Of a stretch of 64,000 nucleotides of DNA, positions 3,327 to 52,949 are shown one piece after another (position 1 is the stretch's first letter; each line of letters starts with the position of its first letter). Both the position numbers and the translations under genes were made by a program. The DNA comes from an uncultured Candidatus Saccharibacteria bacterium (GTDB lineage Bacteria; Patescibacteriota; Minisyncoccia; UBA6257; 2-01-FULL-56-20): NCBI GenBank assembly GCA_964361595.1, contig CAYIAX010000004.1:615-64614 (forward strand), read 5' to 3'. A model generated the notes under the pieces. The model made no database searches and was not told the origin of the DNA. It saw nothing but the letters and a program-made list of their open reading frames with translations.

Positions 3327-5396
3327 ATGGCTAAAAAAGAACCGGAAAAGCAGAATTCCTATAGTGCCAAGGATATTTACGTACTTGAGGGCCTGGAGCC
3401 CGTCCGCAAGCGCCCTGGCATGTATATCGGTTCCACGGGGACCGACGGCCTGCACCACTTAATTTGGGAGGTCGTGGACAACTCCCTCGATGAGGCGATG
3501 GCCGGCTATGCCAAAAACGTTACGATCGAACTTTTGCCTAAAGATCAGGTGGCGGTAACCGATGACGGCCGCGGCATTCCGGTTGAAACTCACAAGCAGA
3601 CCAAAAAATCGGCCTTGGAAACGGTTTTAACCACGCTTCATGCGGGAGGTAAATTTGGCGGGGAATCGTACAAAATTTCCGGCGGTTTGCACGGCGTCGG
3701 CGTTTCGGTTGTGAATGCTTTGTCCGAATGGATGCGCGTCGAAGTTTTCCGCGACGGCGGATTGTGGGTTCAGGAATACGAGCGGGGCAAGCCGAAATTC
3801 AAAGTCAAAAAAATCGGCGCGGCCAAAACCACCGGCACAAAAGTTATCTTTTCTCCCGATCCGGAAATTTTTTCAAACATAGAGTTCAATCTTAAAGGCA
3901 TCGTGGACCATTTGCGCCAGCAGGCGTATTTGACGAAGGGCGTGCGCATCAATATTTTCGACCGCCGCAAAGCGCCGCCGGCTTTTTACGGATTTTATTT
4001 CGAAGGAGGACTCAAGTCATTCGTAAGATATTTGTCCCGCGATGAAAAGCCACTGCAGGAGGATATTTTTTACGCGCATAAAGAATACGATGCCTCGGTT
4101 GAAAACGGCGGCAAAGGCAAGGGCAAAATCGAAGTCGAAGCCACTTTCGTCTATGTGGACGATATCGAAACGCGTGAGTTGTCTTTTGCCAATAACATTT
4201 ATACGCCCGACGGTGGCATGCATCTTACCGGTTTCCGTTCGGCCTTGACGCGCTCCTTGAATGCCTACGCCCGTTCCGAGGGGTACCTGAAGGAAAAGGA
4301 GGAAAATCTCACGAGCGATGACGTGCGCGAGGGCCTGGTGGCCGTGGTTTCGGTAAAACTGCGCGAGCCGCAGTTTGAAGGCCAAACCAAAGCGCGCTTG
4401 GGGAATCCGGAAGCCCGCACCGGCACGGAAGCGGTCGTGAACGAAACGCTTAAAGAGTTTTTGGAAAAGCATCCGCAGGAAGCGCGGCGGCTGATCGAAA
4501 AAGTAATGCTCGCGGCCAAGGCGCGCTTGGCGGCTAAAGCCGCCAAAGACACCGTACTTCGGAAGGGAGCCTTAGAGGGGCTTACCTTGCCCGGCAAGCT
4601 TGCCGATTGCACTTCGAAGAACGCTTCCGAATCGGAGCTTTTTATCGTCGAGGGAGATTCCGCCGGCGGCAGCGCCAAATCCGGGCGCGATCGCAGAACG
4701 CAGGCAATCCTTCCCGTCAAAGGAAAAATTTTAAACGTGGAAAAAGCGCGGCTCGACAAGATGCTTGGCAATGTGGAAATCCGTTCGCTTGTTGTTGCTT
4801 TGGGCACGGCGATTTCAGAAAATTTTGATCTCGCGAAACTCCGTTATCACAAAATCATTTTAATGAGCGATGCCGATGTGGACGGAGCGCACATCCGCAC
4901 GCTTTTTCTCACGCTTTTTTATCGCTATTTCCCGAAGATAATCGAATCCGGCCATCTCTACGTCGCCCAGCCTCCGCTTTATCGCATCCAGGCTGGTAAA
5001 GATGTCAGGTATGCATTTACCGAGGGAGAAAAACAAAAATTAGTGGACGAAGTTTTAAAAGCCAAAGCAGAGAGGAGAGGCAAGGGCGGCAAGGAAGCCG
5101 AGCCGGTTGTAGACGCAGAGGGCGCCGCGCTTGAAGCCGAAGCGGAAGGGGAAAGTCAGACAGGCTTAACAACTAAGGGAGTTGCCATCCAGCGTTATAA
5201 AGGTTTGGGTGAAATGAACCCTGACCAGTTGTGGGAGACAACGATGAACCCGGAAAACCGGCTCTTAAAGCAGGTAGTAGTTGACGACGTCATTAAGGCT
5301 GACAAGCTTTTCAATATCTTAATGGGGGATCAAGTGGACCCGAGAAAACAGTTCATTCAGGCGCACGCCGAGGCGGTGCAGAACTTGGATATTTGA
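3327..5396 (+). CDS. gyrB: DNA gyrase subunit B
   Basis: MAKKEPEKQNSYSAKDIYVLEGLEPVRKRPGMYIGSTG..., GHK ATPase and TOPRIM motifs (EGDSAGG), and the C-terminal YKGLGEMNPDQLWETTM motif. Confidence 0.95.
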   Translation: MAKKEPEKQNSYSAKDIYVLEGLEPVRKRPGMYIGSTGTDGLHHLIWEVVDNSLDEAMAGYAKNVTIELLPKDQVAVTDDGRGIPVETHKQTKKSALETVLTTLHAGGKFGGESYKISGGLHGVGVSVVNALSEWMRVEVFRDGGLWVQEYERGKPKFKVKKIGAAKTTGTKVIFSPDPEIFSNIEFNLKGIVDHLRQQAYLTKGVRINIFDRRKAPPAFYGFYFEGGLKSFVRYLSRDEKPLQEDIFYAHKEYDASVENGGKGKGKIEVEATFVYVDDIETRELSFANNIYTPDGGMHLTGFRSALTRSLNAYARSEGYLKEKEENLTSDDVREGLVAVVSVKLREPQFEGQTKARLGNPEARTGTEAVVNETLKEFLEKHPQEARRLIEKVMLAAKARLAAKAAKDTVLRKGALEGLTLPGKLADCTSKNASESELFIVEGDSAGGSAKSGRDRRTQAILPVKGKILNVEKARLDKMLGNVEIRSLVVALGTAISENFDLAKLRYHKIILMSDADVDGAHIRTLFLTLFYRYFPKIIESGHLYVAQPPLYRIQAGKDVRYAFTEGEKQKLVDEVLKAKAERRGKGGKEAEPVVDAEGAALEAEAEGESQTGLTTKGVAIQRYKGLGEMNPDQLWETTMNPENRLLKQVVVDDVIKADKLFNILMGDQVDPRKQFIQAHAEAVQNLDI

Positions 5397-6388: not shown

Positions 6389-6811
6389 ATGGCTAAAGAA
6401 ATCAAAACAACTATTAAATTACAGCTCGAAGCGGCGAAAGCGAACCCCGCGCCGCCGGTCGGAACCGCCTTGGGTCCGCACGGCGTAAATATCGCCGACT
6501 TCTGCAAGCAGTTCAACGAGGCCACGAAGGACATGGTTGGCGACGTGGTGCCGGCGGAAATCACGATTTATACGGATCGCAGTTTTACGTTTAAGCTCAA
6601 GACCCCGCCGGTTGCGGCGCTCTTAAAGCAAGCCGCCGGCGTGGAGAAGGGCGCCGCGAATCCCCTGAAGGACAAAGTCGGCAAAGTCTCGCGCGCGGAT
6701 GTGCGAAAGATCGCCGAGCGTAAAATGCCGGATTTGAACACCGACAGCCTGGAAGCGGCGGAAAAGATAGTGGAAGGCGCGGCGCGTTCAATGGGGATCA
6801 CGGTTGAATAA
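6389..6811 (+). CDS. rplK: 50S ribosomal protein L11
   Basis: [43 protein letters not shown] is a canonical L11 N-terminus. Confidence 0.9.
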
Positions 6812-6870
6812 GCCGAGATTTACGGTAAATTTTTTTCCTGGTAAACTGGTTAAAACCGGTTTAAAGCCGT

Positions 6871-7509
6871 ATGGTAAAAAACACTTATCCGGGGAAATTC
6901 ATCGTTTTTGAAGGCCCCGACGGCTCGGGGCAATCAACTCAAGCAGATTTATTGAAAAAGCATTTTGAGGAGAAGGGAAAGACTGTTTGCTTGACCCATG
7001 AGCCGACACTTGATAGTCCGGCTGGCTTGAGGGTTAAAAATATTTTGACTCACCAGGAGCCACCGCCTTCGCCGTTCGAATTTCAAAAGCTTTATGCGAT
7101 TGATCGCGAGGTGCATTTGAAGAATAAGATAATTCCTGCTTTGAAAAAAGGCGAGTACGTCATTTCCGATCGGTATTTTTTCTCAACCTTTGCTTTTGGG
7201 TCTTTGGGATGCGATCTAGAAGCTTTGATTGATTTGAACAAAAACTTTCTTTATCCTGATCTGACATTCATTTTAAGAGTGGCTCCCGAAATTTCCATAT
7301 ACAGAATTGAAAAGCGGGGCCGCCAAGTGGAATTTTTTGAAAAACTGGAAAAGTTAAAGAGGGTAAATAACGCTTATAAAATTTTACAAAAAAGATTTGA
7401 AAACTGTTTTTTGATCGACGGAGAAAAACCGATTGAGGAAGTTCATGCGGTTGTGCTTGCAAAGTTAAACATTTTGAATATTGGCTTACCTGCCTATAAT
7501 CAATCCTGA
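6871..7509 (+). CDS. tmk: thymidylate kinase
   Basis: P-loop FIVFEGPDGSGQSTQ and the DRY motif (ISDRYFFS). Confidence 0.8.
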   Translation: MVKNTYPGKFIVFEGPDGSGQSTQADLLKKHFEEKGKTVCLTHEPTLDSPAGLRVKNILTHQEPPPSPFEFQKLYAIDREVHLKNKIIPALKKGEYVISDRYFFSTFAFGSLGCDLEALIDLNKNFLYPDLTFILRVAPEISIYRIEKRGRQVEFFEKLEKLKRVNNAYKILQKRFENCFLIDGEKPIEEVHAVVLAKLNILNIGLPAYNQS

Positions 7510-7515
7510 CTCCCC

Positions 7516-7629
7516 ATGCCCAAATACAAACCCACCATCGGACTTGAGGTTCCCGCCTTCGCTAAAGCTTCCACCGGCGCTAAAGCTATGGCGGACAAGC
7601 TGGCGGGCAAGCACGCTTTATTAATATGA
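7516..7629 (+). CDS. 37-codon upstream ORF whose first 12 codons mimic the gatB N-terminus; its stop TGA overlaps the gatB ATG (ATATGA)
   Basis: MPKYKPTIGLEV... versus GatB MNYQPTIGLEV...; the remainder is encoded by a repeat element (cccgccttcgctaaagct...). Confidence 0.3.
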   Translation: MPKYKPTIGLEVPAFAKASTGAKAMADKLAGKHALLI

Positions 7630-9245
7630 ATTATCAACCAACAATCGGACTTGAGGTGCATGCGGAATTGAAGACGCGAACCAAGATGTTCTGCGATTCT
7701 TTAAACGACCCGGACGAGCGGCACCCAAATGTGAATGTTTGTCCGGTTTGCCTCGGCCATCCGGGAGCCTTGCCGACGATCAACAAGCAGGCCGTGGAGG
7801 CCGTTATCCGCGCGGGTTTGGCCCTGGGCGGAAAGATAAATGAGCGGGCGAAATTTGACCGCAAAAATTATTTTTATCCCGATCTGCCGAAGGGCTATCA
7901 AATCTCGCAGTACGACGAACCGATTGTCACGGGCGGGGAATTAAAAGGAGTGCGGGTGCGCAGAATTCACCTCGAGGAGGATACGGGAACATTGGCGCAT
8001 TTTGCGCCAAGCGCAGACCTGCGCGGACCGGACGCAGATCGACGCGGAAACTTTCTGCGTGAGTCGGCGTTAAGTCAGCGTGAGTCAGCGTCGTTGGTTG
8101 ATTTTAACCGCGCAGGCGTGCCCCTTTTGGAACTTGTGACTGAACCGGACATTACGAGCGCGGAACAGGCGGTGGAGTTCGGCAAGGCTTTACGTCTTAT
8201 TTTCCGTTATCTCGGGATTTCTGATGCCGACATGGAAAAGGGCCAAATGCGGCTTGAAGCCAATGTTTCGCTTCGCGAAACCGCGGATGATCGCGGATCA
8301 AACGCGGATCAACGCGGAAACGGCTTAGGCGAAAATCTCGGGACGAAGGTTGAGATTAAAAACATAAATTCGTTTAAGGCGCTAGGCGTGGCCATAGCTT
8401 ACGAGCTAAAGCGGCAGGAAGAGCATTTAAAAGAGGGAAAAAAGATCGTCCAGGAAACGCGCGGCTGGAACGAAGACAAACAAGCGACCGTTTCCCAGCG
8501 GTCGAAAGAAGAGGCGCACGATTACCGCTATTTCCCTGAACCCGATTTACCGCCCATTCGTCTTACGAATGGTCGAGCCTCGCCCACCGATGTGGGCGGG
8601 CCGCCTTCGGATATCGCCTTCGACATTGAAGCCATCCGCGCTTCGTTGCCTGAATTGCCGGAGCAAAAAATCGGCCGCTTCGAGCGCGAATTCGGAATTT
8701 CTGCCAAGCAAGCCGAACTTCTTGTAAGTGATAAAAAAGTCGCGGATTTTTTTGAAGAAGCTGTTAGCGAACTGGCAACACGAGACGAACTCACTACTTC
8801 TAGGATTGACAAGAAATCACAAGAAATGCTTTTTAACTATATTACTGGTACAGCGAGGGGTATTTACTCCACAATGCTTGTTCAAGAAAATGGAGCTGTG
8901 CTTGGGAAGATAAAACCGGAGCATATAGCCCATTTGATAGATCTTATTTGTGATGGAAAAATAGGCGAACGCCAGGCAAGGGATATCTTAAAGAAAATGT
9001 TTGAGGATGGTTCAGATCCAGAAGAAATTCTAAATCGGGAAGGTTTACACACGGTCTCCGACACAGAAGAACTCAAACTCGTGGTGGAAGAGGTGATCGC
9101 AGAAAATCCCACTGCGGCTGCGGATTATAAAAAAGGCAAAGCACAAAGTTTGCAATTTATGATTGGCAAAGCGATGGGAAAATTGAAGGGCAGAGGGAAT
9201 CCCGGCGTGCTCAAGGAAATTTTTGAGCAGAATCTATCGCAGTAA
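7626..9245 (+). CDS. gatB: Asp/Glu-tRNA amidotransferase subunit B; carries two in-frame repeat-element insertions
   Basis: GatB N-terminus (TIGLEVHAELKT), the CPVCLGHPGALP zinc motif and a C-terminal YqeY-like tail. Low-complexity inserts ADLRGPDADRRGNFLRESALSQRESAS and ADDRGSNADQRGNG. Confidence 0.9.
   Translation: MNYQPTIGLEVHAELKTRTKMFCDSLNDPDERHPNVNVCPVCLGHPGALPTINKQAVEAVIRAGLALGGKINERAKFDRKNYFYPDLPKGYQISQYDEPIVTGGELKGVRVRRIHLEEDTGTLAHFAPSADLRGPDADRRGNFLRESALSQRESASLVDFNRAGVPLLELVTEPDITSAEQAVEFGKALRLIFRYLGISDADMEKGQMRLEANVSLRETADDRGSNADQRGNGLGENLGTKVEIKNINSFKALGVAIAYELKRQEEHLKEGKKIVQETRGWNEDKQATVSQRSKEEAHDYRYFPEPDLPPIRLTNGRASPTDVGGPPSDIAFDIEAIRASLPELPEQKIGRFEREFGISAKQAELLVSDKKVADFFEEAVSELATRDELTTSRIDKKSQEMLFNYITGTARGIYSTMLVQENGAVLGKIKPEHIAHLIDLICDGKIGERQARDILKKMFEDGSDPEEILNREGLHTVSDTEELKLVVEEVIAENPTAAADYKKGKAQSLQFMIGKAMGKLKGRGNPGVLKEIFEQNLSQ
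7991..8095. repeat. GC-type palindromic element, in-frame inside gatB
   Basis: gacgcagatcgacgcggaaactttctgcgtgagtcggcgttaagtcagcgtgagtcagcg: ACGCGGA-type units followed by their reverse complements. Confidence 0.7.
8281..8320. repeat. GC-type element half-copy inside gatB
   Basis: ccgcggatgatcgcggatcaaacgcggatcaacgcggaaa. Confidence 0.6.
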
Positions 9246-12105: not shown

Positions 12106-12816
12106 CTAGAAAACGTAGAGGTCAAGTTCCGGCCCCAATTTTTTATGGTAGCGCTTTTCTGCTTCGGCGCGGCGCGCAAGATATTTATCCAATTCTTTTT
12201 TGTTTTGGAAAGCCAGTCCGTAGATCCGCTGGAGCTGGGGATTTTTTTCGCTGCCTTTCCAATACGCGCCGGCGATTTTGTCGAGCTTGAATCCATCCGC
12301 CGGAATTTCCTCTGTATTTTTCACGTGGCCGCCGCGGCACAAATCAATAAACGCAGATTTACGCTGATCAAACGCGGATGAACGCGGATTTAAGTTGCCT
12401 GTTACGTAAACTGTCAGGGTTTTCTTGTCCTTCGAAAAATCCTTTATAAGTTCGAGTTTGAAGGGCTGGTTCTTAAAAAGTTTTTTGGCTTCGGCGGGCG
12501 TAACTTTTTTCCCTGAAAACGGCAAATGCTCTTTGATCAGCCGGCGCATTTCCGCTTCGATTTCGGATAGATCTTCCGGGCGAATCTGCGTAGATCCGCG
12601 CTTTGATCCGCGTTTATCCGCATCTAATTGGAAGTCATAATAAAACCCGTTCTCGATCACGGGGCCGATGCCCAGTTGAGCCTTGGGAAATTTGCGCAAA
12701 ACAGCGTCGGCCAAAAGGTGGGCAAGCGAGTGGCGGACTTTGTCTAGCCGTAGGCTCGCTTCGTCCTGCCGAAGGCGGATTTTGTCGAGCGAGGCGTAGT
12801 TATGCTTTTGCGGCAT
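12106..12816 (-). CDS. thrS: threonyl-tRNA synthetase N-terminal (tRNA_SAD/editing) part, separated from the core by a single in-frame TAG
   Basis: HSLAHLLADAV (HxxxH) and YHKKLGPELDLYVF, then TAG, then ALVASRLQLWPPKG in the same frame. Two GC-type element halves are inserted in-frame. Confidence 0.75.
   Translation of the reverse strand: MPQKHNYASLDKIRLRQDEASLRLDKVRHSLAHLLADAVLRKFPKAQLGIGPVIENGFYYDFQLDADKRGSKRGSTQIRPEDLSEIEAEMRRLIKEHLPFSGKKVTPAEAKKLFKNQPFKLELIKDFSKDKKTLTVYVTGNLNPRSSAFDQRKSAFIDLCRGGHVKNTEEIPADGFKLDKIAGAYWKGSEKNPQLQRIYGLAFQNKKELDKYLARRAEAEKRYHKKLGPELDLYVF
12349..12625. repeat. GC-type element with its two inverted halves (12349-12392 and 12583-12625) separated by ~190 bp of thrS coding sequence
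   Basis: Left half aaacgcagatttacgctgatcaaacgcggatgaacgcggattt; right half agatctgcgtagatccgcgctttgatccgcgtttatccgcatct. Confidence 0.6.
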
Positions 12817-15173: not shown

Positions 15174-17198
15174 TCACAGTTTGTAAATAAAGATTGATGT
15201 GCCCGCCCTATAATCCGGTTCGGGGACATTCCCTATTCCTGGTTTTGGCGGGCGAAGCTCGGTAAGCCAGCGGTACTCCTCTTCCGGTTTGCGAACTTGG
15301 CCGGGCACGGTCGGCTGGATTGCGCCTTCAAGCGTATTGACCGAAACCGCTAACCAATGAATCGCGGATTTACGCTGACCATACGCGGACTCGCGCGGAA
15401 AATTTTCTGCGTTGGTCTGCGTTTGGTCTGCGTCGTTCTGCGCCAAAGAGGGGTTGCCGCGACCCGACCACCAATATTCCGCTTTGTCCTCGCCAAGATA
15501 ATATTTAGGATTGGCGCCGCCGAAATAATCAACGGCAATTTTATCGATTTCCGGGTTGGCTTCCACGAATTTCTTGAGCCGCAGCATGTCCTGTCCCCAG
15601 TCGTAGTTCGAATCAGTCACGAAGCGGTAACCGTTCTCTTTGCCGCCGCCAATTTCATTGAAGTAAGAGATGAAGTGAGGCGCATTTACGAGCGTTTCCA
15701 GAATGAACCAAATGACGAGCACGACGACGGCGATATATTTTAACGCGGCCGAGAAGAATAATTTTGCCCAAGCTTTGAGGTTTTGCCAAAAAGAATTTAA
15801 ACGAGGCACTTCAAGTCCGACCACCCATTGTTTCAGGGCGCTTGCCGTGAGGATATAAATGAAGGGAAGCGTCGGGAAAAGATGCCGAAAACCGATATTC
15901 AAAGGGCTCTGCATGCTCCAGCCCCAGTAAAGGATGATGAAAACCAGCATCGCAAATTCCGGAAAACGATTTTCGATGTATTCAAGCACGAAGCGCATTG
16001 CTTGCCGCGGCAGGCGGAATAATTTTCCGAGCATGTTCCGCAAGGCTGTGAGGATGGCGATGAAGATCATGAGGAGCACAGGCAGGGGTTCCTTTAAGGC
16101 ATAAACCACGGGGAAATAAGAAGTCCAGCCGGCGGCGGAAACTTCGCCTAAAAAGTAATTCGTATTTCCTCCCGAAGAGCGCTGGAGCACCATGAGGACG
16201 CCCAGCATGTATTCCGCGAAGGGCCGCGTTACGGGATTTTTTGTGAGCCAAATGTTCAAGTCGGCCAAGCAGCGCAGGGGTTTACAGCTTGCCTCGGGCG
16301 GCGTCGGTCCGTCTGCGAAGGAAGCCAGGATGAACTCCGTATCCGCGGTTTGCTTGGCTTGCGGATAATTGACCGTGAAAAGCGCGTAGACCGGATAAAC
16401 GATTAAAAGGTAGCCGATGCCGAAAATAACGATGAGCGCGCGAACATAACGGAAAGCGCGGATGCCGAAGCGCTTGAAACGCAGTGCCGGATCGGTATTC
16501 CGCCAATCGCGCAGCAAACCCACGCCGTAAAAAGCGATCAGCAAGAAAATGAAATATGGCATCAAAAGCACCGCAGAAAATTTTGCGAGCTGGGCGACGC
16601 CGAAAATAATCCCCGCAATGATTAAATGCTTGCGGGAAGGATGAAGCAAGAAAGTTATGAGCGCATAAGTCGCGGCGAAGACGCCGAAAGCAGCAGCGAC
16701 ATCGGTGGTAACGTAATGGCCGTGCGCAAGGATATTAGGCGAGAGGGCAAAAATCCCCGCTGGCAAGAGCGCCCAGAATTTGCCAACGAGCTCCCGCGCC
16801 CAAAAATAAATGAGCCAGACAAGGATGAGCGTCAAGAGCATGGGCCCGATGCGCGCAACCTGGATAATTTTGTCCGCATCATTGCCCGCGCCGTAAAGAA
16901 AATTCCAGCCCATCGCCCATTGGCCGTTTACCTCTTGCCAAGGCGGAATGTCGGTCGGGAGAGTTGGATTGAATGTTAAGAGCGGCAAACCAGCCAAAGC
17001 TTTAAGGAGCGGCGGATGCTCCGGGTTCAAACGAAAGTCCAGATTGTGAACGTAAGCGTAGCCAGCCGGAATATGAGCCAGCTCGTCCATGATCGCCGAT
17101 TCCTCGAGCGACGAATAGGTCATGAGCCCCGCAGCCGCTATCGTGATAAGTACGAGGATCCAGATCGGCCAGACGCGCGGATTCAAAGATGACTCCAT
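15174..17198 (-). CDS. polytopic membrane glycosyltransferase, GT39/PMT/ArnT-like family
   Basis: More than 10 predicted TM helices. First loop has MDELAHIPAGYAY...NPEHPPLLK, resembling the DE-motif loop of PMT/ArnT-type transferases. Contains a GC-type element in-frame (15361-15447). Confidence 0.55.
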   Translation of the reverse strand: MESSLNPRVWPIWILVLITIAAAGLMTYSSLEESAIMDELAHIPAGYAYVHNLDFRLNPEHPPLLKALAGLPLLTFNPTLPTDIPPWQEVNGQWAMGWNFLYGAGNDADKIIQVARIGPMLLTLILVWLIYFWARELVGKFWALLPAGIFALSPNILAHGHYVTTDVAAAFGVFAATYALITFLLHPSRKHLIIAGIIFGVAQLAKFSAVLLMPYFIFLLIAFYGVGLLRDWRNTDPALRFKRFGIRAFRYVRALIVIFGIGYLLIVYPVYALFTVNYPQAKQTADTEFILASFADGPTPPEASCKPLRCLADLNIWLTKNPVTRPFAEYMLGVLMVLQRSSGGNTNYFLGEVSAAGWTSYFPVVYALKEPLPVLLMIFIAILTALRNMLGKLFRLPRQAMRFVLEYIENRFPEFAMLVFIILYWGWSMQSPLNIGFRHLFPTLPFIYILTASALKQWVVGLEVPRLNSFWQNLKAWAKLFFSAALKYIAVVVLVIWFILETLVNAPHFISYFNEIGGGKENGYRFVTDSNYDWGQDMLRLKKFVEANPEIDKIAVDYFGGANPKYYLGEDKAEYWWSGRGNPSLAQNDADQTQTNAENFPRESAYGQRKSAIHWLAVSVNTLEGAIQPTVPGQVRKPEEEYRWLTELRPPKPGIGNVPEPDYRAGTSIFIYKL
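15361..15447. repeat. GC-type palindromic element inside the GT39-like gene
   Basis: atcgcggatttacgctgaccatacgcggactcgcgcggaaaattttctgcgttggtctgcgtttggtctgcgtcgttctgcgcc. Confidence 0.7.
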
Positions 17199-22079: not shown

Positions 22080-22760
22080 ATGCAAAAAGAAGAACTGTTA
22101 AAAGAACTCACACGTGACGGATATTTAAAGAGTGAGAATGTTAAAGCCGCGTTTTCGGCTATCGATCGGAAGGATTTTGTCGCTCCCGGTTTTGAAGCAG
22201 AGGCATACTTGAATGTGCCCCTGCCGATCGGTTTTGGCCAGACGATTTCACAGCCTTTGACCGTTGTTTTTATGCTGGAGCTTTTGGACCTAAAACCGGG
22301 CCAGAAAATTTTGGAAATCGGTTCGGGATCGGGTTGGCAGACCGCAATGCTTGCTTATCTTGTAAGCAAGCCGCGGACTGACGCGGACTTTACGCAGATC
22401 AACGCAGAAAATAATCAAGAAAAATCCGCAGGCAGAGTAATTGCCATCGAGCGGATTCCGGAACTTCTGCGGATGGGGGAGAGAAATGTCAGCAAATACA
22501 ATTATGTGAGCAAAGGCACGGTGAAATTTGTCGAGGGCGACGGCTCGAATGGTTATGCGGCTGATGCTCCCTATGACCGGATCATTGGCGCGGCGAGCGC
22601 GGATAAATTGCCGGAAGCTTGGCGCGAGCAGTTGGCCGTCGGCGGACGGATCGTTACGCCCATTCGACAAAGCGTAATCGCTTTTGATAAGCTTTCGGAG
22701 AAAGAATTTAAAGAGACGGAATATCCGGGCTTTATCTTCGTGCCGCTTGTTAAAGGCTAG
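22080..22760 (+). CDS. pcm: protein-L-isoaspartate O-methyltransferase with a GC-type element insert
   Basis: GQTISQP, SAM motif LEIGSGSGW, and a C-terminal GGRIVTPI. Insert KPRTDADFTQINAENNQE. Confidence 0.8.
   Translation: MQKEELLKELTRDGYLKSENVKAAFSAIDRKDFVAPGFEAEAYLNVPLPIGFGQTISQPLTVVFMLELLDLKPGQKILEIGSGSGWQTAMLAYLVSKPRTDADFTQINAENNQEKSAGRVIAIERIPELLRMGERNVSKYNYVSKGTVKFVEGDGSNGYAADAPYDRIIGAASADKLPEAWREQLAVGGRIVTPIRQSVIAFDKLSEKEFKETEYPGFIFVPLVKG
22370..22412. repeat. GC-type element half-copy in pcm
   Basis: gcggactgacgcggactttacgcagatcaacgcagaaaat, preceded by the hairpin cttgcttatcttgtaagcaag. Confidence 0.6.
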
Positions 22761-22828
22761 TAAGCAGTAATTAGTAAGTAGTAGGTGGTAGAAGCGAAGC
22801 GGGCTTGCCCGCCATAGCTTTAGCGAAG

Positions 22829-22899
22829 GCGGGTATGGTTCAGTGGTAGAACGCGACCTTCCCAAGGTTGAGACACGGGTTCAATTCCCGTTACCCGCT
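22829..22899 (+). tRNA. tRNA-Gly (anticodon CCC)
   Basis: Cloverleaf folded by hand: acceptor GCGGGTA/TACCCGC, anticodon stem CGACC/GGTTG with loop TTCCCAA, T-loop GTTCAATTC. Close to E. coli tRNA-Gly(CCC). Confidence 0.8.
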
Positions 22900-22959
22900 C
22901 TAAACACTTGCCAATTTGGCAATTCTCCACGTCTTGGTGAAATTTCACTCGACGGCTTG

Positions 22960-32995: not shown

Positions 32996-33059
32996 CTTTT
33001 AGAAATAAAAAGTTAAATCTACTAAAAGCTGAAAGCTCGAAGCTCAAAGCTAATAAAAA

Positions 33060-33173
33060 ATGAAGGTCAGAAGTTCCATTAAAAAGATTTGCCAGTCCTG
33101 CAAGGTGGTGAAACGCCAGGGACGGCTTTATGTTATCTGCAAGAATCCCAAGCATAAACAGCGGCAGGGCTAA
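33060..33173 (+). CDS. rpmJ: 50S ribosomal protein L36
   Basis: [37 protein letters not shown] (37 aa; zinc ribbon C..C...C..H). Below the ORF-track length cutoff, so found by hand. Confidence 0.85.
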
Positions 33174-33258
33174 CTAGCTTTTAGCTTTTACCTGCCGGCA
33201 GGCAGGGCTTTGAGCTTATAGTCACTAAAACCTAACAGCTAAAACCTCAAACCTAATT

Positions 33259-33642
33259 ATGCGATTACTCGGTATCAACATTCCCGACAATAAAGCGATC
33301 GAAGTTTCGCTTACTTATATTTATGGAATCGGCCGCGCGCAGAGCCGGCGCGCTTTGGCCGCAGCAAAGGTAGGTTTTGAAAAACGGACAAAAGATTTGA
33401 ATGCTGAAGAGGTCAATAAATTGAAAACGTGGATAGAAAAAAATTGCCACATCGAAGGCGATTTGCGCCAACAGATCCGCCGCAACATCCAGCGGCTGAA
33501 GGAGCTCCAAACCTATCGCGGCAGCCGCCATGCGCGCCGCCTGCCGGTCCGTGGCCAGCGCACACGCACCAATTCCCGCACTGTTCGGGGCAATGTCCGC
33601 AAGACCGCAGGCAGCGGCAAGCGCAAGGTGGAGTTGAAGTAA
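33259..33642 (+). CDS. rpsM: 30S ribosomal protein S13
   Basis: MRLLGINIPDNKAIEVSLTYIYGIGRA... Confidence 0.95.
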   Translation: MRLLGINIPDNKAIEVSLTYIYGIGRAQSRRALAAAKVGFEKRTKDLNAEEVNKLKTWIEKNCHIEGDLRQQIRRNIQRLKELQTYRGSRHARRLPVRGQRTRTNSRTVRGNVRKTAGSGKRKVELK

Positions 33643-33767
33643 TCCCTCACCCTTTAACGATTTCCAACATGACTAAATTCAGTTTAAAAATTTCGTTCTC
33701 TAATCAAGGCAACATGAAAGAAATTGCAGTTTTTAAGGTCGCGAAGCAGATCGCTAAAGGGTGAGGG
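33643..33767 (+). repeat. TIR-flanked ~125-bp intergenic element, ribosomal-protein type, copy 1; contains 16-codon leader uORF 33714..33764 and ends ...agggTGAgggATG at the rpsK start
   Basis: TIRs tccctcaccctttaacgat / atcgctaaagggtgaggga. uORF MKEIAVFKVAKQIAKG with its stop TGA 3 nt before the rpsK ATG. Confidence 0.85.
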
Positions 33768-34220
33768 ATGGGCAAGAAAAAAATCGCACAACAAACCGCC
33801 GAAGAGGCGCTGAAGGAAAAAAACGAGCAGGACATTGCGGTGGCCAAGGCTTCGGTGGTCAAGAAAGCCAAAAGCGTTGATTCCGGCCGCGTTTATGTTA
33901 ATGCTTCATATAATAATACGGTGATTACCGTGACTGATCTGCAGGGCAATGTAATAACCTGGGCTTCGGCGGGATCAATCGGTTTCTCGGGACCCAAAAA
34001 GGCTACCCCATTCGCGGCTTCTAAGATCGTGGCCGTGATCGCGGAGAAACTCAAGAATTTGGGAGTGATGAATTTGGAGATCCGGGCTAGGGGCATCGGC
34101 GGCGGCAGGGATTCGTCTATCCGTTCCTTTGCCAACCAGGGTTTCAATATCACCTCCTTGAAAGATGTAACCCCGGTACCGCATAATGGTCCTCGGCCGC
34201 GTAAAGTCAGGCGCGTATAA
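33768..34220 (+). CDS. rpsK: 30S ribosomal protein S11
   Basis: VYVNASYNNTVITVTDLQGNVITWASAGSIGFSGPKKATPFAA... Confidence 0.95.
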   Translation: MGKKKIAQQTAEEALKEKNEQDIAVAKASVVKKAKSVDSGRVYVNASYNNTVITVTDLQGNVITWASAGSIGFSGPKKATPFAASKIVAVIAEKLKNLGVMNLEIRARGIGGGRDSSIRSFANQGFNITSLKDVTPVPHNGPRPRKVRRV

Positions 34221-34345
34221 TCCCTCACCCTTTAGCGATTTCTAACATGACTCAATTCAGTTTAAAAATTTTGATCACTATAAAAGGCAACATGAAAGAA
34301 ATTGCAGTTTTTAAGGTCGCGAAGCAGATCGCTAAAGGGTGAGGG
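34221..34345 (+). repeat. TIR element, ribosomal-protein type, copy 2 (uORF 34292..34342)
   Basis: Near-identical to copy 1, with the same TIRs and uORF MKEIAVFKVAKQIAKG. Confidence 0.85.
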
Positions 34346-34960
34346 ATGAGATATCCTAAAGAAAAAAAAGAACGCTCGTTGGGCGAGCGGCTACAGCTCA
34401 AAGGGGAGCGCTGCCGGTCACCCAAATGCGCCATGGTGCGGAAGCCGTATCGGCCCGGCATGCATGGACACAAGCGGCAGCGAAAGATGCTGTCTGATTT
34501 CGGCCGCCAGATCAAAGAAAAGCAGAAATTCAAGTGGAGCTATGGGATTGACGAGCGGAACCTGCGCCATATCTTCGAACGCGCCGAACGGAAATCAGGT
34601 TCAGTCGCTTCGCAATTTTTAAAACTTTTGGAATTGCGTTTGGATAACGTAATCTTTCGTTTAGGTTTTGCCGCGTCGCGGTCGATGGCGCGCCAGCTCG
34701 TGAACCACGGGCATGTTATGGTTAACGGACGGCGGGTCAAATCTCCCGGTTTCGAGCTTAAGCTTGGAGATATAATCTCGGTTCGTCCGTCTTCGGTTAC
34801 AAAGTCGGTTTTCAAGAATTTAAAAGAGGAACTTTCGAAGTATACGCCCCCGGCATGGCTTAGCATTGATGCCGACAAGTTTGAAGGCAAAATTGTTTCC
34901 GCTCCCGATGAAAATATGCCTTTTGAAGTAAATTTATTGGTCGAATCATTTAGCAAATAA
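34346..34960 (+). CDS. rpsD: 30S ribosomal protein S4
   Basis: Zn-ribbon N-terminus (CRSPKCAMVRKPYRPGMHG) and the S4 domain (LELRLDNVIFRLGFAASRSMARQLVNHGHVMVNGRRV). Confidence 0.95.
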   Translation: MRYPKEKKERSLGERLQLKGERCRSPKCAMVRKPYRPGMHGHKRQRKMLSDFGRQIKEKQKFKWSYGIDERNLRHIFERAERKSGSVASQFLKLLELRLDNVIFRLGFAASRSMARQLVNHGHVMVNGRRVKSPGFELKLGDIISVRPSSVTKSVFKNLKEELSKYTPPAWLSIDADKFEGKIVSAPDENMPFEVNLLVESFSK

Positions 34961-34975
34961 ACATTTCGCAACACG

Positions 34976-35728
34976 ATGGAATACGCACACTTGAGTTCTA
35001 CGGTAGGCATTAAAACTGTTTCGGAAGAGGCCAAGCATGGTGTCTTTGACATTGAGGGCTTATATGCCGGTTATGGCCTTACAATTGGAAATGCGCTCCG
35101 CCGCGCCCTTTTGTCTTCGCTGCCCGGCGCCGCAGTAACCTATATCAAGATCAAAAATGCGTCGCACGAATTTTCAACCTTGCCGGGCGTCAAAGAGGAT
35201 CTGGTTCAGTTGACGCTCAACTTTAAAAAACTGCGTTTTCGCATGCATACGGACGAGCCGCAAATTCTACTTCTCGAATCTAAAGGCGAAGGCGTAGTCA
35301 AGGCTGGTAATATCGCTCCCAACTCCGAGGTGGAGATCGTAAATCCGGATGAAGTAATCGCCACGCTCACGACTAAAGATTCGGAGCTCAATATTGAGAT
35401 TACCGTCGAGCGCGGTTTGGGTTACTCCGCCGTGGAAGCGCGGAAAGCGGAAAAACTGGCCATCGGCCTTATTGGTATAGATGCCTTCTTTTCGCCCGTG
35501 ACTAAAGTGAACTATGCGATCGAGAATATGCGCGTGGGTGAACGCACCGACTACAATCGTCTGCGCTTTGAGATTGAAACGGACGGGACAGTGAGCCCAT
35601 CTGCGGCCCTCCACAAGACTTCGAATATCCTGAAGGACCACTTCGACAAGATTTTTGGCGTCGAGGTGAAGGAATTCGAGCTCGAAAAAACGGAGCCGGC
35701 CAAAAAACGTACGAGGAAAAAAGCATAG
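34976..35728 (+). CDS. rpoA: DNA-directed RNA polymerase alpha subunit, N-terminal domain only (250 aa, no alpha-CTD)
   Basis: GYGLTIGNALRRALLSSLPGAAVT..., dimerisation/assembly domain. Ends EPAKKRTRKKA with no CTD-like sequence. Confidence 0.9.
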   Translation: MEYAHLSSTVGIKTVSEEAKHGVFDIEGLYAGYGLTIGNALRRALLSSLPGAAVTYIKIKNASHEFSTLPGVKEDLVQLTLNFKKLRFRMHTDEPQILLLESKGEGVVKAGNIAPNSEVEIVNPDEVIATLTTKDSELNIEITVERGLGYSAVEARKAEKLAIGLIGIDAFFSPVTKVNYAIENMRVGERTDYNRLRFEIETDGTVSPSAALHKTSNILKDHFDKIFGVEVKEFELEKTEPAKKRTRKKA

Positions 35729-35857
35729 AAAATCCCTCACCCTTTAGCGATTTCCAACATGACTAAAACCAGTTTAAAAATTTTGATAACTATAAAAGGC
35801 AACATGAAAAATCATGGAGTATTTAAGGTCGCGAAGCAGATCGCTAAAGGGTGAGGG
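35729..35857 (+). repeat. TIR element, ribosomal-protein type, copy 3 (uORF 35804..35854, MKNHGVFKVAKQIAKG)
   Basis: Same TIRs; diverged interior. Confidence 0.85.
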
Positions 35858-36211
35858 ATGCGGCATTTAAAGAAAGGAAAAAAGTTTCACAGGTTGAAGG
35901 GAGAACGGCGTTCTTTTTTGCGCAACTTGGCGAATGATTTGCTTCGTAGCGGCAAAATCGAAACTACGGAAACCCGCGCCAAAGCCATCCGGCCTTTAGT
36001 TGAGCGCATGGTCACCATCGCCAAGCGGCAGGATTTGGCTGCGCGCCGCCTGCTCCTTGCTCGTTTGCACAATGAGCGGATTGTCCATAAGCTTTACGAT
36101 GAAATCGCTCCGCGTTATCAAGGCCGCCCGGGCGGATATCTGCGGATCACGAAGTTGGGCCGCAGCAAGAAGCGCGACGGCAGCCGGCTGGCCACCATAG
36201 AATTTGTTTAA
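35858..36211 (+). CDS. rplQ: 50S ribosomal protein L17
   Basis: MRHLKKGKKFHRLKGERRSFLRNLANDLL... Confidence 0.95.
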   Translation: MRHLKKGKKFHRLKGERRSFLRNLANDLLRSGKIETTETRAKAIRPLVERMVTIAKRQDLAARRLLLARLHNERIVHKLYDEIAPRYQGRPGGYLRITKLGRSKKRDGSRLATIEFV

Positions 36212-36336
36212 TCCCTCACCCTTTAGCGATTTCTAACATGACTCAATTCAGTTTAAAAATTTCATTCTCAAAGCAAGACAACATGAAAAATCATCGAGTT
36301 TTTAAGGTCGCGAAGCAGATCGCTAAAGGGTGAGGG
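36212..36336 (+). repeat. TIR element, ribosomal-protein type, copy 4 (uORF 36283..36333, MKNHRVFKVAKQIAKG)
   Basis: Same TIRs, ends at the rplM ATG. Confidence 0.85.
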
Positions 36337-36684
36337 ATGGATTACCACTTGGATGCTAAAAATAAGCACTTGGGGCGCTTGGCGTCGGAAATCGCCATGA
36401 TTCTCCAGGGCAAGCGGAATGCAAGCTACGACCCTGCTCGTTTGAGCGGTGATCGCGTGTTCGTAAAAAATTATCGCGGCGTGGTTGTGACCGGCCGCAA
36501 GGCGGAGCAAAAAACCTATTATCGCCACACCGGCTACATGGGACATTTGAAGGAAGCCAAATACAAAGAAGTATTTGCGAAGGACCCCAAGCGCGTCCTG
36601 CGCGAAGCAGTGCGCCGGATGCTGCCGAAAAATTTTTTAAACCAGCGCCGTCTAAACCAACTTATTTTCATCGATGGCGAATAA
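36337..36684 (+). CDS. rplM: 50S ribosomal protein L13
   Basis: LGRLASEIAMILQGKRNASYDP...VFVKNY. Confidence 0.95.
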   Translation: MDYHLDAKNKHLGRLASEIAMILQGKRNASYDPARLSGDRVFVKNYRGVVVTGRKAEQKTYYRHTGYMGHLKEAKYKEVFAKDPKRVLREAVRRMLPKNFLNQRRLNQLIFIDGE

Positions 36685-41697: not shown

Positions 41698-41748
41698 GAT
41701 TTAGCTTAGAGGTTTTAGCTTATAGCTTTGAGTTCGCACATTTTTATT

Positions 41749-44568
41749 TTACCACAGCTCAATCATTAAGAGCGTCCCGGGCCGAAACTTTTGGTAAAGG
41801 GTTTCTGTTATAAAGGGCATAAAAGGGTGAAGAAGCTTTAAGGAGGTGAGTAAGCAGGTTTCGAGCGTGGCATACGCTCGCCGGGCGTCATTCAAGTTCT
41901 CGCCCTGGAGACGCGATTTTGCGGTTTCCACATGCTTATCCGCGAGCGCGTGCCAGATGTAGTGATAAAGCAGTTCAGCTGACCGGTGGTATTCGAATTT
42001 TTCGAGATGCGCCGTGACTTTTTTCTTTATGCCCGCCAGTTCAGCCGCAGTTTTCTTGTCCCAAGCCGTAGGAGCGGCAAGCGCGCCGTCTTTGGGCTTC
42101 CGCATATCGAGAAATCGCGAGATATTCCAGATTTTGGTCGCAAAATTGCGGTAAGCGCGGATTTTGTCTTCCGAGATCACGATATCGTTGCCGGGAGTAT
42201 TCCCGACCACAAGCGCCATCCGCAAAGCATCTGTGCCGTAAGTTTCCGCCACGCCCAGGGGATCGATTACGTTGCCCTTGGATTTGGACATTTTCTGCCT
42301 GTCCTTGTCGCGGACCAAGCCATGGAGGTAGACGGTTTTAAACGGAACTTTACCGGTGCGGTAAATTCCCAGCATCACCATGCGCGTCACCCAGAAGAAA
42401 AGAATGTCATAAGCGGTTTCCATGATATCGGTCGGGTAAAATTCCTCAAAATCGGATTTTGATTTAAGGAGGGTAGCGAACGGCCATTGGCCGGAGGAAA
42501 ACCAGGTGTCGAAAACGTCGGGGTCCTGTTCGTAGATGTGGTTGCCGCATTTTTCGCACGGTTCAAGGATATCAAATTGAATTGCCTGGGCGTTTTTTAT
42601 GCTTTCTCTCGTAAGCGCCCGCTCGGCAGTCAGGCCCCTTATCTGTTTCATGAGCATTCTGATGGTGCCGCCGTGGCTGACAACGATGACGTTTTTATGT
42701 TTATGGATTTTTTGATGTTTTTGGAAGGCCGCCCAGGCGCGTTTTTCCACTTCTTTGTAGCTTTCACCTCCGTAATCGTTGACCTCGTAGTCATATAAAC
42801 GTTTTCCGTATTTTTCTATGGCTTCGTTGCGCGCCACCCCTTCGGCGTCTCCCATGGAACGTTCGTGCAGTTCTTCTTCTATAATTATTTCTTTATCCCC
42901 CAGTGTTTTTGAAATAATTTCCGCAGTTTCTCTGGCTCTTTTCTGATTTGAACTGATAATAAGGTCTATCGGCGTATTCTTGAGCGCCTCGGCGGTTTTT
43001 TCGGCCTGAGCTTTTCCCGCGTCGTTTAGCGGATCGTCTCCGAGTCCTTGCAGTATGCTGTTTTTATTGGCGTCTGTTTCCCCGTGCCGTACCAGAAACC
43101 AGCTCGATTTTATTTCCGGATTTATTTTTACGTCGCCGCAGCCGAGGCAGAACCAGGCGGGGATTCGTATGCCCCAGACGATTTGGCGCGAAACGTTCCA
43201 GTCGCGGATATTCTTTAACCAATGGAGATACACTTTCTCCATCCTTTTGGGAATAAATTTAATTTTTCCGGATGTTACGGCCTCAATCCCCAAATCCCGC
43301 AGCGATTTTTCGGAAGCAGTTTTTTTCTGCGTTTGTCCGCGCTCGCCCCGAGTTGCATCGAGGGGTGAAGTCCGCGTAAGTCCGCGGGATGTCGGCGTAG
43401 CCGACATCCGGACGAACCACTGCATGCGGGGTAAGGGTTCAAGCGTCGAACCGCACTTGTAGCAAGTCGCAATTTGGTGGACGTAAGCCGGGTCAACTTT
43501 CTCTAAAATCCCTTTTTCCTGCATGGCGGCGGCAACTTTTTCCCTCGCCTCCGCCACCTTGAGGCCGTGAAAAGGCCCGGTTTCGCCCGTAAGCCGTCCG
43601 TTTTCGTTTATTATTATTTTCGGACCAGGTATTTCGTCCTTATGCCTCTGCCAGATCTCAAAGTCGGTCGCATCGTGCGCAGGCGTAACCTTAACCACGC
43701 CCGTGCCGAAGGCGGGATCAACGGCCTCGTCCGCAATGACTTTGAATTTAAGCGGGCCCAAAATGCCTTCCGCCTCGATTTCCTTGCCGATGTATTTCTT
43801 GTAGCGTTTGTCCCCAGGATTAACCGCGAGCGCTGTATCGCCGAACTTGGTCTCGGGCCGCACGGTTGCCAAGGTAAGCGGCCCGTACCTGATGTAATAA
43901 AGCGGATCGGTGCGTTCGACGTACTTTATCTCAAGATCGGAAAGTGCGGTCTTGTGCTTGGGGCACCAATTGACGACGCGGAAATCACGGTAGGCGAGAC
44001 CGTCTTTATAGAGTTGGGCAAAAGTTTCGTAAACTATTTTTACGATCTCGGGATCAAGCGTGAATTTTTCGCGTGACCAGTCGCAGGAGGCGCCCAGTTT
44101 GCGCAACTGGCCCTCCATGATTTTTTTATTCTCCTGCGTGAAGTCCCAAATCGCTTTGTAAACTTCTTCCCGGTCCATTCGAAATCGGCTTTTTCCTTCT
44201 TTCTCTAATTTCTTATCGAAAACCACCTGTGTTTCAAATCCCGCATGGTCGGCGCCGGGCAGCCACAGCGCCTTCTGGCCGCGCATGCGCGCAAAGCGGA
44301 TCATGATGTCCTGGAGCGTTACGAACACCGCGTGCCCCACATGCAAGGAGCCGTTCGCGTTCGGCGGCGGCATGATAATCGAAAACGCGGACTTACGCTG
44401 ACTTGACGCTGACTGTCGCTGACTTTTTCCGCGTTTGTCTGCGTGCCGTCCGCGTGAGTCTGCGCTGATCGGCGGTAGCCGATCAGGGTTGAAATATCCG
44501 GATTCCTCCCACTGCTTATAAATCGAATCTTCAATCTCTTTGTGGTCGTAGCGGGGGTCGAGTTCCAT
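41749..44568 (-). CDS. valS: valyl-tRNA synthetase with an inserted histidine-phosphatase (PGAM-like) domain and two GC-type element inserts
   Basis: PPPNANGSLHVGHA (HIGH), KMSKSKGN, editing domain, and the anticodon-binding helices. RHGETDANK...VVSHGGTIRML lies between the two Cys pairs of the zinc knuckle. Confidence 0.9.
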   Translation of the reverse strand: MELDPRYDHKEIEDSIYKQWEESGYFNPDRLPPISADSRGRHADKRGKSQRQSASSQRKSAFSIIMPPPNANGSLHVGHAVFVTLQDIMIRFARMRGQKALWLPGADHAGFETQVVFDKKLEKEGKSRFRMDREEVYKAIWDFTQENKKIMEGQLRKLGASCDWSREKFTLDPEIVKIVYETFAQLYKDGLAYRDFRVVNWCPKHKTALSDLEIKYVERTDPLYYIRYGPLTLATVRPETKFGDTALAVNPGDKRYKKYIGKEIEAEGILGPLKFKVIADEAVDPAFGTGVVKVTPAHDATDFEIWQRHKDEIPGPKIIINENGRLTGETGPFHGLKVAEAREKVAAAMQEKGILEKVDPAYVHQIATCYKCGSTLEPLPRMQWFVRMSATPTSRGLTRTSPLDATRGERGQTQKKTASEKSLRDLGIEAVTSGKIKFIPKRMEKVYLHWLKNIRDWNVSRQIVWGIRIPAWFCLGCGDVKINPEIKSSWFLVRHGETDANKNSILQGLGDDPLNDAGKAQAEKTAEALKNTPIDLIISSNQKRARETAEIISKTLGDKEIIIEEELHERSMGDAEGVARNEAIEKYGKRLYDYEVNDYGGESYKEVEKRAWAAFQKHQKIHKHKNVIVVSHGGTIRMLMKQIRGLTAERALTRESIKNAQAIQFDILEPCEKCGNHIYEQDPDVFDTWFSSGQWPFATLLKSKSDFEEFYPTDIMETAYDILFFWVTRMVMLGIYRTGKVPFKTVYLHGLVRDKDRQKMSKSKGNVIDPLGVAETYGTDALRMALVVGNTPGNDIVISEDKIRAYRNFATKIWNISRFLDMRKPKDGALAAPTAWDKKTAAELAGIKKKVTAHLEKFEYHRSAELLYHYIWHALADKHVETAKSRLQGENLNDARRAYATLETCLLTSLKLLHPFMPFITETLYQKFRPGTLLMIELW
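42560..43105 (-). other. PGAM/histidine-phosphatase domain-coding insertion inside valS
   Basis: Encodes ...CLGCGDVKINPEIKSSWFLVRHGETDANKNSILQGLGDDPLNDAG...NVIVVSHGGTIRMLMKQIRGL...FDILEPCEKCG, flanked by ValS zinc-knuckle cysteines. Confidence 0.75.
43327..43410. repeat. GC-type element (TCCGCG units plus palindrome gatgtcggcgtagccgacatc) in-frame in valS
   Basis: gaagtccgcgtaagtccgcgggatgtcggcgtagccgacatccgg. Confidence 0.6.
44384..44490. repeat. GC-type palindromic element, full copy, in-frame in the valS N-terminus
   Basis: acgcggacttacgctgacttgacgctgactgtcgctgact...tccgcgtttgtctgcgtgccgtccgcgtgagtctgcgctgatcggcggtagccgatcag; encodes ADSRGRHADKRGKSQRQSASSQRKSAF. Confidence 0.7.
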
Positions 44569-48896: not shown

Positions 48897-49020
48897 CCCT
48901 CACCCTTAGAGAATTTGCGCAGAGCGCAAACTCTCGATATGTTTTGAGCTAAAGACCTTTATCTCCAAATAAGTTCTTGTGAAAATGTGTTTCATGAAAT
49001 GATTCTCTAAGGGTGAGGGA
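48897..49020 (-). repeat. TIR element, atp type, copy 1, upstream of atpG (29-codon uORF 48906..48995; ...ctcTAAgggTGAgggATG)
   Basis: TIRs tccctcacccttagagaat / attctctaagggtgaggga. uORF MKHIFTRTYLEIKVFSSKHIESLRSAQIL. Confidence 0.85.
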
Positions 49021-51038: not shown

Positions 51039-51162
51039 CCCTCACCCTTAGAGAATTTGCGCAGAGCGCAAGCCCTCAATCTGTTTTGTCCTGGGGACCT
51101 TTAGCTCCGAATAAGTTCTTATTAAAATGTTTTTCATAAAGTGATTCTCTAAGGGTGAGGGA
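51039..51162 (-). repeat. TIR element, atp type, copy 2, upstream of atpH (uORF 51048..51137)
   Basis: Near-identical to copy 3. uORF MKNILIRTYSELKVPRTKQIEGLRSAQIL. Confidence 0.85.
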
Positions 51163-52825: not shown

Positions 52826-52949
52826 CCCTCACCCTTAGAGAATTTGCGCAGAGCGCAAGCCCTCAATCTGTTTTGTCCTGGGGACCTTTAGCTCCGAATA
52901 AGTTCTTATTAAAATGTTTTTCATAAAGTGATTCTCTAAGGGTGAGGGA
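52826..52949 (-). repeat. TIR element, atp type, copy 3, upstream of atpB (uORF 52835..52924)
   Basis: Same TIRs and uORF as copy 2. Confidence 0.85.

Follow-up and report, generated by a model that had tools for sequence, protein, structure and literature searches.

The palindromic repeats closest to the one described here are REP elements, which are usually species-specific, MITE-like palindromic repeats, and the Rickettsia palindromic elements (RPEs), which sit in frame inside genes. Precedents for a gene end that stands in two copies come from homology-facilitated illegitimate recombination (HFIR) and from the gene-end duplications that integrating DNA leaves behind, as with elements by which dusA regains its 5′ end or a tRNA gene its 3′ end. 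On the side of translation, termination-reinitiation at overlapping stop and start codons (ATGA) couples translation in many bacterial operons, and in gene 60 of phage T4 a 50 nt gap is crossed by translational bypassing. The locus analyzed here is the 5′ end of gatB, a gene that is normally essential where Asn-tRNA or Gln-tRNA is made by transamidation.

The locus lies in a window of 64,000 nt (the whole stretch of DNA that was analyzed) from a groundwater Patescibacteria genome. Hainich aquifer samples have yielded contigs identical to the window; among named organisms, Liptonbacteria and Paceibacteria provide the closest homologues of its GatB and thymidylate kinase (tmk). The gene order is gyrB-secE-nusG-rplK-tmk-gatB, with miaA on the opposite strand, as in many relatives. 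Between tmk and gatB, a short upstream open reading frame (uORF) opens with codons resembling the gatB start, continues through a GC-rich palindromic repeat, and ends on the start codon of the working gene, as an initial annotation of this DNA had described. The feature is best seen as the relic of a gene start beside a hairpin repeat; it is probably a scar of recombination, and it may have a second role in coupling translation. Its parts are as follows.

6871–7509, plus strand: tmk, thymidylate kinase, 212 aa (ORF with PF02223), with its stop codon TGA at 7507–7509
7516–7551, plus strand: gatB 5′ stub (copy a), ATG plus 11 codons, MPKYKPTIGLEV, beginning 6 nt past the tmk stop codon
7516–7629, plus strand: stub ORF (the uORF), 37 aa, MPKYKPTIGLEVPAFAKASTGAKAMADKLAGKHALLI, running from the stub through the hairpin element to TGA at 7627–7629
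7552–7612, plus strand: expanded GC-rich palindromic repeat with outer stem CCCGCC...GGCGGG, matching a second copy in the window
7613–7625, plus strand: AT-rich non-element tract of 13 nt, ACGCTTTATTAAT, abutting the ATG of the working gatB
7626–7629, plus strand: ATGA, in which the gatB start codon (7626–7628) overlaps the stub-ORF stop codon
7626–9245, plus strand: working gatB, 539 aa (PF02934, PF02637 and homologues)
7626–7658, plus strand: copy b, gatB codons 1–11 (MNYQPTIGLEV), followed by His12
22797–22833, minus strand: second, unexpanded copy of the palindromic repeat, abutting tRNA-Gly(CCC) at 22829–22900 and overlapping its first 5 nt

The duplication of the gatB start is well supported statistically. 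Stub codons 1–12 (ATG CCC AAA TAC AAA CCC ACC ATC GGA CTT GAG GTT) match gatB codons 1–11 at 24/33 ungapped positions, the working gene beginning ATG AAT TAT CAA CCA ACA ATC GGA CTT GAG GTG CAT, and the two copies share an exact block of 14 nt, ATCGGACTTGAGGT (7537–7550 and 7644–7657). The best values among 2000 dinucleotide shuffles of the 500 nt upstream were a 22/33 match and an exact run of 11 nt; since 0/2000 shuffles equaled the observed match, P<0.0005. Gapped local alignment of the stub with the gatB start gave a score of 34 against a shuffle maximum of 27, and when the full 64,000 nt were screened for diverged direct repeats 36–400 nt apart, the stub and copy b formed the sole gene-start pair. 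Three separately assembled Hainich contigs carry a junction identical to that of the window, and the tmk on a 65-kb NCBI contig is identical to the window tmk; the shuffles and the independent assemblies led us to reject chance similarity and assembly artefact. The stub lacks His12, an invariant position in the GatB alignment, and its frame differs from that of gatB, so that it is unable to contribute to GatB. Such stubs mislead gene callers: the public gatB call (P0001, at L001 1429–3018) begins at the codon-11 GTG (MHAELK...), 10 codons short, and several GatB calls from relatives are likewise truncated, with their ATG starts intact. Three such calls considered as further stub cases (P0022, P0102 and P0103) proved to be gene-caller start choices with intact true starts.

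The insert consists largely of the palindromic repeat. The initial annotation had proposed that the uORF reads through an expanded reverse-complement copy of the sequence adjoining tRNA-Gly, and the alignment agrees well beyond chance: 7552–7569 is the reverse complement of 22816–22833 at 18/18 positions (0.14 matches expected by chance), and 7579–7600 that of 22803–22824 at 21/22 (0.00 expected). The copy beside gatB has been lengthened by two internal tandem duplications, one of an 18-nt unit over 7552–7587 (7552–7569/7570–7587) and one of a 12-nt unit over 7589–7612 (7589–7600/7601–7612). The stem CCCGCC...GGCGGG is present in both window copies and is retained elsewhere, reading CCTCC...GGGGG in L105; the stability of the window hairpin does not significantly exceed that of shuffled sequence. 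A displaced tmk 3′ end was considered as the source of the insert and rejected, the shared TATGGCGG and K-L-W-R deriving from the repeat element itself. At the second copy, the repeat contains the first 5 nt of the tRNA (GCGGG, 22829–22833); since it covers the 5′ end of tRNA-Gly(CCC), the precursor could pair the 5′ acceptor strand with the repeat stem.

The core of the repeat is a motif of ~27 nt, (T)CCGCC-TTCGCTAAAGCT[TA][CT]G-GCGG(A/G)CAAG, found with at most two mismatches in four other Patescibacteria loci: L027 (~7057), L105 (~3835 and ~4583), L120 (~1188) and L130 (~5103). The L120 copy lies in frame within GatB (...HPAYAKASAGEP...), and short duplications flanking the motif are not evident at the copies in these four loci. 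There are two copies in the 64-kb window and six good ones, one of them inside GatB, in ~1 Mb of related loci. The motif also occurs, at times in tandem or inverted (L175, L179), in 16 IMG/VR contigs (L171–L186), for which the chance expectation was estimated at ~1 match. Like REP, MITE and RPE repeats, the window repeat is a short, GC-rich, imperfect palindrome, multicopy, found both between genes and in frame (as in L120 GatB) and tolerated where function survives. It differs from REPs in that its motif core is nearly identical across contigs with GC contents of 0.34–0.71, and from RPEs in that the window element lies inside a non-functional stub ORF, not a working protein. Nothing meaningful was returned by Rfam for window 7400–7750 or L086 500–950, nor was anything relevant found in the literature on Patescibacteria palindromic repeats or on the motif sequence. 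A ~27-nt motif common to unrelated contigs, and in frame inside proteins, merits separate study.

Repeats of other kinds are also present in this DNA. gatB contains in-frame repeats with a period of 10–11 nt (CGCGGATCAA and GCGTGAGTCA are examples of the units) at 8009–8090 and 8279–8318, where they encode ...ADLRGPDADRRGNFLRESALSQRESA... and ...DDRGSNADQRG..., and at least five other long ORFs in the window carry them (12349–12389, 15360–15442, 22369–22412, 44382–44464 and 54504–54593). The gatB sites are loops that hold other insertions in relatives. A PF13366 domain (GxxExxY, PD-(D/E)XK-like), flanked by repeat-like peptides (RIxSNxxRI), lies within an internal loop of the GatB proteins P0020, P0034, P0056, P0061 and P0076 (633–657 aa), Liptonbacteria records among them, and this loop is the site of the second repeat insertion in the window GatB. 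These Liptonbacteria insertions were considered as relatives of the stub and set aside, as they occupy an internal loop and not the N-terminus. Units of 7 nt (TAGAACC, ATTCTAG, CTAAAAC and their complements) form intergenic runs that flank genes on either side at 55248–58340, 33021–33256 and 41702–41733. A 138-nt unit is present in three copies that are 86–97% identical (48885–49022, 51027–51164 and 52814–52951), and a 171-nt unit in four (33601–36340). Both units end in ...CTAAGGGTGAGGG ATG or ...CTAAAGGGTGAGGG ATG ahead of several genes, and these upstream modules carry one of the few Shine-Dalgarno-like sequences of the window. At 59476–64000 there is a very long repetitive coding region with 13–15 copies of GGCAACGTCGGCATCGGGACGAC (GNVGIGTT) spaced 200–530 nt apart.

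To look for the same layout elsewhere, ~1.1 Mb of related loci was scanned for long ORFs whose first 12 residues are repeated at a distance of up to 300–600 nt upstream. Three independent stub cases emerged.

Window gatB: upstream copy at 7516–7551, 12 codons; insert of ~74 nt; real start at 7626
L007 gatB: upstream copy at 565–600, 12 codons (MEYETVIGLEIH); insert of 52 nt with a strong hairpin; start at 653 (MKYETVIGLEIH)
L086 rplK: upstream copy at 624–686, 63 nt, 61/63 positions identical; insert of 148 nt with several hairpins; start at 835

The L007 layout is seen in three assemblies. In 3/3 cases the similarity between the copies sets in exactly at the ATG, the upstream copy occupies the native start position, and a hairpin begins 0–2 nt past the stub, the fold z-scores being −5.5 for L007 and −5.1 for L086. 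Both gatB stubs break at the same codon (11–12), and the duplications have lengths of 33–36 nt in the window, 36 nt in L007 and 63 nt in L086. Each stub ORF stays open to the real start: that of the window ends in ATGA, that of L007 runs 11 nt beyond the start, and that of L086 stops 4 nt short of it. Three further direct-repeat pairs were rejected as gene-start stubs. The L088 pair is a tandem duplication of a small gene; the L157 pair is a duplication of a tRNA 3′ half around an inserted ORF with a GIY-YIG-like motif (676–1100, the ORF reading ...YYIGSTKD...); and the L121 pair is a palindromic element, present twice in frame within one long ORF (3669–4080). A corresponding scan for 3′-end stubs gave one plausible case, on a viral contig, and one scaffolding artefact, and such stubs are thus too few to be compared with those at 5′ ends.

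The differences between stub and working gene are distributed as in coding sequence. The three cases pooled contain 12 synonymous and 4 non-synonymous differences (pN/pS 0.10), a pattern that neutral drift of the stub would give with P=0.002 on what is a small count of 16 substitutions in all; between stub and gene, pS reaches 0.88 in L007 and 0.57 in the window and is 0.15 in L086. The window stub also differs from copy b by one in-frame codon. The L007 stub, the L007 working copy and the gatB start of L193, whose GatB is 75% identical, are mutually equidistant at 27–28/36 positions, so the two L007 copies are as distant as orthologues of different species. The synonymous bias and this equidistance suggest that the copies resemble a pair of alleles, each functional during their divergence. 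The palindromic element is 97–100% identical between its copies and the flanking duplication ~75%, which implies that their ages differ. Against the gatB 5′ ends of close relatives, copy b matches at 27/29, 27/30 and 25/30 positions and the stub at the lower values of 24/29, 24/30 and 21/30; the stub is nearest to copy b itself, at ~22/27 by our own count, including the 14-nt block. The M-x-K-Y-x-P-T form of the stub is found in lineages with the tmk type of the window, and both N-terminal forms are present among real GatB proteins.

Comparison with relatives also bears on the ancestry of the neighboring genes. The identities of four window proteins to two sets of relatives are given below.

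nusG: 83% to L170 and L168; 75–77% to L187, L188 and L084
rplK: 86–87% to L170 and L168; 74–75% to L187, L188 and L084
gatB: 68–69% to L170 and L168 (a weak grouping); 65–67% to L187, L188 and L084
tmk: 33% to L170 and L168; 61–64% to L187, L188 and L084

L170 and L168 are thus the closest relatives of the window by nusG and rplK, and their tmk type is discordant. Two non-orthologous tmk types, ~30% identical, share the slot between rplK and gatB across different Paceibacteria, and their distribution conflicts with nusG, rplK and gatB; the replacement could instead have taken place in the L170/L168 lineage. In the L007 lineage (L190 1–1153), which has two tandem tmk genes followed by thyA and folA, the stub closes a tmk-tmk′-thyA-folA block between tmk and gatB. 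The low GC content of the window tmk, the lowest of 41 genes, was discounted as evidence of transfer, since tmk is also the lowest-GC gene of the cluster in relatives, and a candidate second stub upstream of tmk (NFFPGKLV resembling NTYPGKFIV) was dismissed at the DNA level (P=0.76).

The spacing of tmk and gatB places the stub at the ancestral gatB start. The tmk-gatB spacers range from −4 to +10 nt in L170, L187, L188, L165 and L086, with L165 at −4 nt, L170 at 9 nt and both L187 and L188 at 4–5 nt. In relatives, the distance of gatB from the gene before it generally falls between −16 and +20 nt, and in the lineages with matching tmk, gatB follows 4–5 nt behind it, where the window has its stub. 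The proposal of the initial annotation that the gatB start has been displaced is upheld by these positions. The comparison with relatives on which that proposal was to be judged gave a divided answer: the ancestral start site coincides with the stub, while no pre-insertion sister was found and the nearest relatives are stub-less. A search for a sister genome among GTDB species genomes, JGI metagenomes and a set of 5.8 billion proteins yielded a closest GatB only 56–65% identical, and no donor lineage with the stub as its gatB start was found, the closest tmk homologues being 62–64% identical.

Taken together, the divergence at the junction, the equidistance in L007, and the apparent replacement or acquisition of neighboring genes point, at the level of sequence comparison, to recombination of two gatB alleles over simple insertion. 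We therefore interpret 7516–7551 as the defunct 5′ end of another gatB allele, stranded at a recombination junction, and assign this reading a probability of about 0.5. Recombination would have rearranged the tmk-gatB junction and left the stub at the ancestral gatB start position; in the most likely event, the present tmk would have arrived together with the first codons of the donor's gatB, and the joint would lie at the base of the small hairpin repeat, which is GC-rich and closely precedes the resident gatB. The stub is thereby inferred to be foreign rather than duplicated in place. The onset of similarity exactly at the ATG fits such a scar, because two alleles would share coding sequence only. 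The junction resembles those described for HFIR and for gene-end duplication in having a partial copy of a gene end beside DNA of apparently different ancestry, with allele-like divergence, the L157 locus being the classical tRNA version; it differs from them in that there is no integrase or defined element and only 52–148 nt separate the copies. Some findings run against the scar. A fully foreign stub would not predict the closeness of the stub to copy b, with its 14-nt block, and the L086 copies are similar enough to fit duplication in place equally well. The break shared by both gatB stubs at codons 11–12 and the proximity of the hairpin to each stub also hint at a site- or structure-directed mechanism, which the scar does not need.

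Simpler insertion models do not account for the locus. The initial annotation had envisaged an element inserted after codon 12 of an ancestral gatB; this fails because only one copy of codons 1–12 would remain, and it leaves the second complete copy without explanation. A fresh target duplication fails because its copies would be identical, yet here one codon indel and 6 substitutions (pS 0.57) separate them, beside an element that is itself nearly unchanged. The arrangement is likewise unlike a transposon target-site duplication in that the repeats are 33–36 nt long, match at only 24/33 positions with a codon indel, and stand 13 nt from the element. Tandem duplication followed by deletion predicts the same sequence before both ATGs, and this is absent in all three cases.

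Duplicative insertion in place is the strongest of the alternatives, and although it is on balance unlikely, template-switch duplication at the hairpin is a serious rival, above all for L086. If DNA broke or a fork stalled at the start of gatB, repair by template switching or by a long staggered cut and fill-in would have copied the hairpin from elsewhere and re-copied codons 1–12, in the manner of a long target duplication, the stub diverging later but being kept, or being still young. The near identity of the insert to a repeat elsewhere in the genome, its growth by local tandem duplication, the hairpin abutting the stub in 3/3 cases, the 61/63 identity in L086, the 14-nt block common to stub and copy b, and the common break codon of the two gatB cases are all consistent with such an event. 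The divergence of the gatB stubs (pS 0.57 and 0.88, with pN at 0.08) is less easily reconciled with it, as a non-functional stub should have gained non-synonymous changes, and an element 97–100% identical should not be flanked by a duplication of ~75% identity if both arose at once. Nor would it leave the element and the gatB ATG 13 nt apart, with non-element sequence in the gap, and a mechanical stagger does not predict that similarity begins exactly at the ATG in 3/3 cases, with duplication lengths of 33–36, 36 and 63 nt.

Whatever its origin, the stub ORF may bear on the translation of gatB. Matches to the Shine-Dalgarno sequence precede 3/41 genes of the window and are absent before gatB at 7626; the tract at 7613–7625, which lacks one, weakly resembles the sequence upstream of gatB in L164. 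Simple consensus scans of the plus strand at 6700–7800 found no sigma-70-like promoter and no terminator. Among relatives, no other single distance from the preceding long ORF to gatB is as frequent as the ATGA overlap (a spacer of −4). L084 shares the tmk type of the window, and its 97-nt tmk-gatB spacer is spanned by a uORF of 33 codons (1901–2004) without GatB similarity, running from a TAATG at the tmk stop to an ATGA at the gatB start, a layout with a chance of 0.17. Many genes of the window have a TATAAT-like box 6–8 nt ahead of the ATG (e.g., 12816, 17198, 55506 and 12891), and these boxes, together with the rarity of Shine-Dalgarno sequences, suggest leaderless or near-leaderless mRNAs.

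Termination-reinitiation through the stub ORF, with gatB coupled to this leader as the initial annotation had it, is plausible on the sequence features but putative. Ribosomes finishing tmk would re-start at the stub ATG, translate through the hairpin, terminate at the ATGA and re-initiate on gatB. This putative relay from tmk through the stub ATG and the ATGA to gatB is tentative, with somewhat less than an even chance; if it operates, coupling of tmk and gatB would have been kept or restored despite very few Shine-Dalgarno sequences. The arrangement is like known termination-reinitiation coupling in its ATGA and in the lack of a Shine-Dalgarno sequence, promoter or terminator between the two frames, and unlike it in that the upstream partner is a 37-codon relic ORF bridging 116 nt, so that the putative relay has two steps.

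A more demanding explanation is that the stub ORF was kept by selection to catch ribosomes coming off tmk and take them past the structured insert; this would be compatible with either origin, and we consider it doubtful. If the native initiation region and opening codons of the gene were required, conservation at the peptide level (pN/pS 0.10) would be explained. All three stub ORFs remain open to the real start, and the bridging uORF of L084 without a stub, the scarcity of Shine-Dalgarno sequences and the tight gene spacing of relatives agree with such a function. The open frame of the window, ending within 15 nt of the gatB ATG, nevertheless has a chance probability of 0.35 and is not improbable alone, the corresponding read-through chances being 0.63 for L007 and 0.15 for L086 and the joint value with the window ~0.03. 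Moreover, a relay requires just an ATG and an open frame and no particular peptide, no orthologous stub conserved across species was found, and the nearest relatives have none. An extended form, in which stub uORFs would be a selected relay device in Patescibacteria and the codon-12 break would mark structure-directed insertion of the hairpin repeat, is improbable from the loci compared here. According to it, in bacteria largely devoid of Shine-Dalgarno sequences, a retained copy of the start and first codons would capture ribosomes when DNA enters between coupled genes, bring them through the structured insert and pass them on where stop and start overlap, and the scarcity of amino-acid changes in the stubs would reflect selection for the relay.

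Programmed bypassing, with initiation at 7516, take-off at the end of the stub beside the hairpin, and landing on the codons of copy b, is very improbable. The locus is like T4 gene 60 in that repeated codons flank an untranslated-looking gap, here of 88–107 nt, with a hairpin abutting the last codon of the first copy. It is unlike it in that no stop codon follows the putative take-off codon, the gap is ~2 times the 50 nt of gene 60, the stub ends in GTT and copy b in GTG, and in 3/3 cases the downstream copy keeps its own ATG and all N-terminal codons, which would be superfluous if bypassed. A leader-peptide attenuator, to which the succession of short ORF, hairpin and tRNA-related gene bears a superficial likeness, is scarcely credible given that there is no U-tract terminator or alternative hairpin and that the leader has no Asn or Gln codons; the same holds for chance similarity and assembly artefact.

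The gatB locus illustrates how a normally essential gene can persist in a reduced genome after its start region has been disrupted. If the relay is true, it would be a simple example of the repair of operon coupling without initiation led by a Shine-Dalgarno sequence. Patescibacteria are thought to depend on DNA uptake, and stub relics could therefore mark recombination breakpoints. The three stubs suggest, from their sequences, that gene-start relics beside hairpin repeats may recur as footprints of DNA exchange in Patescibacteria.
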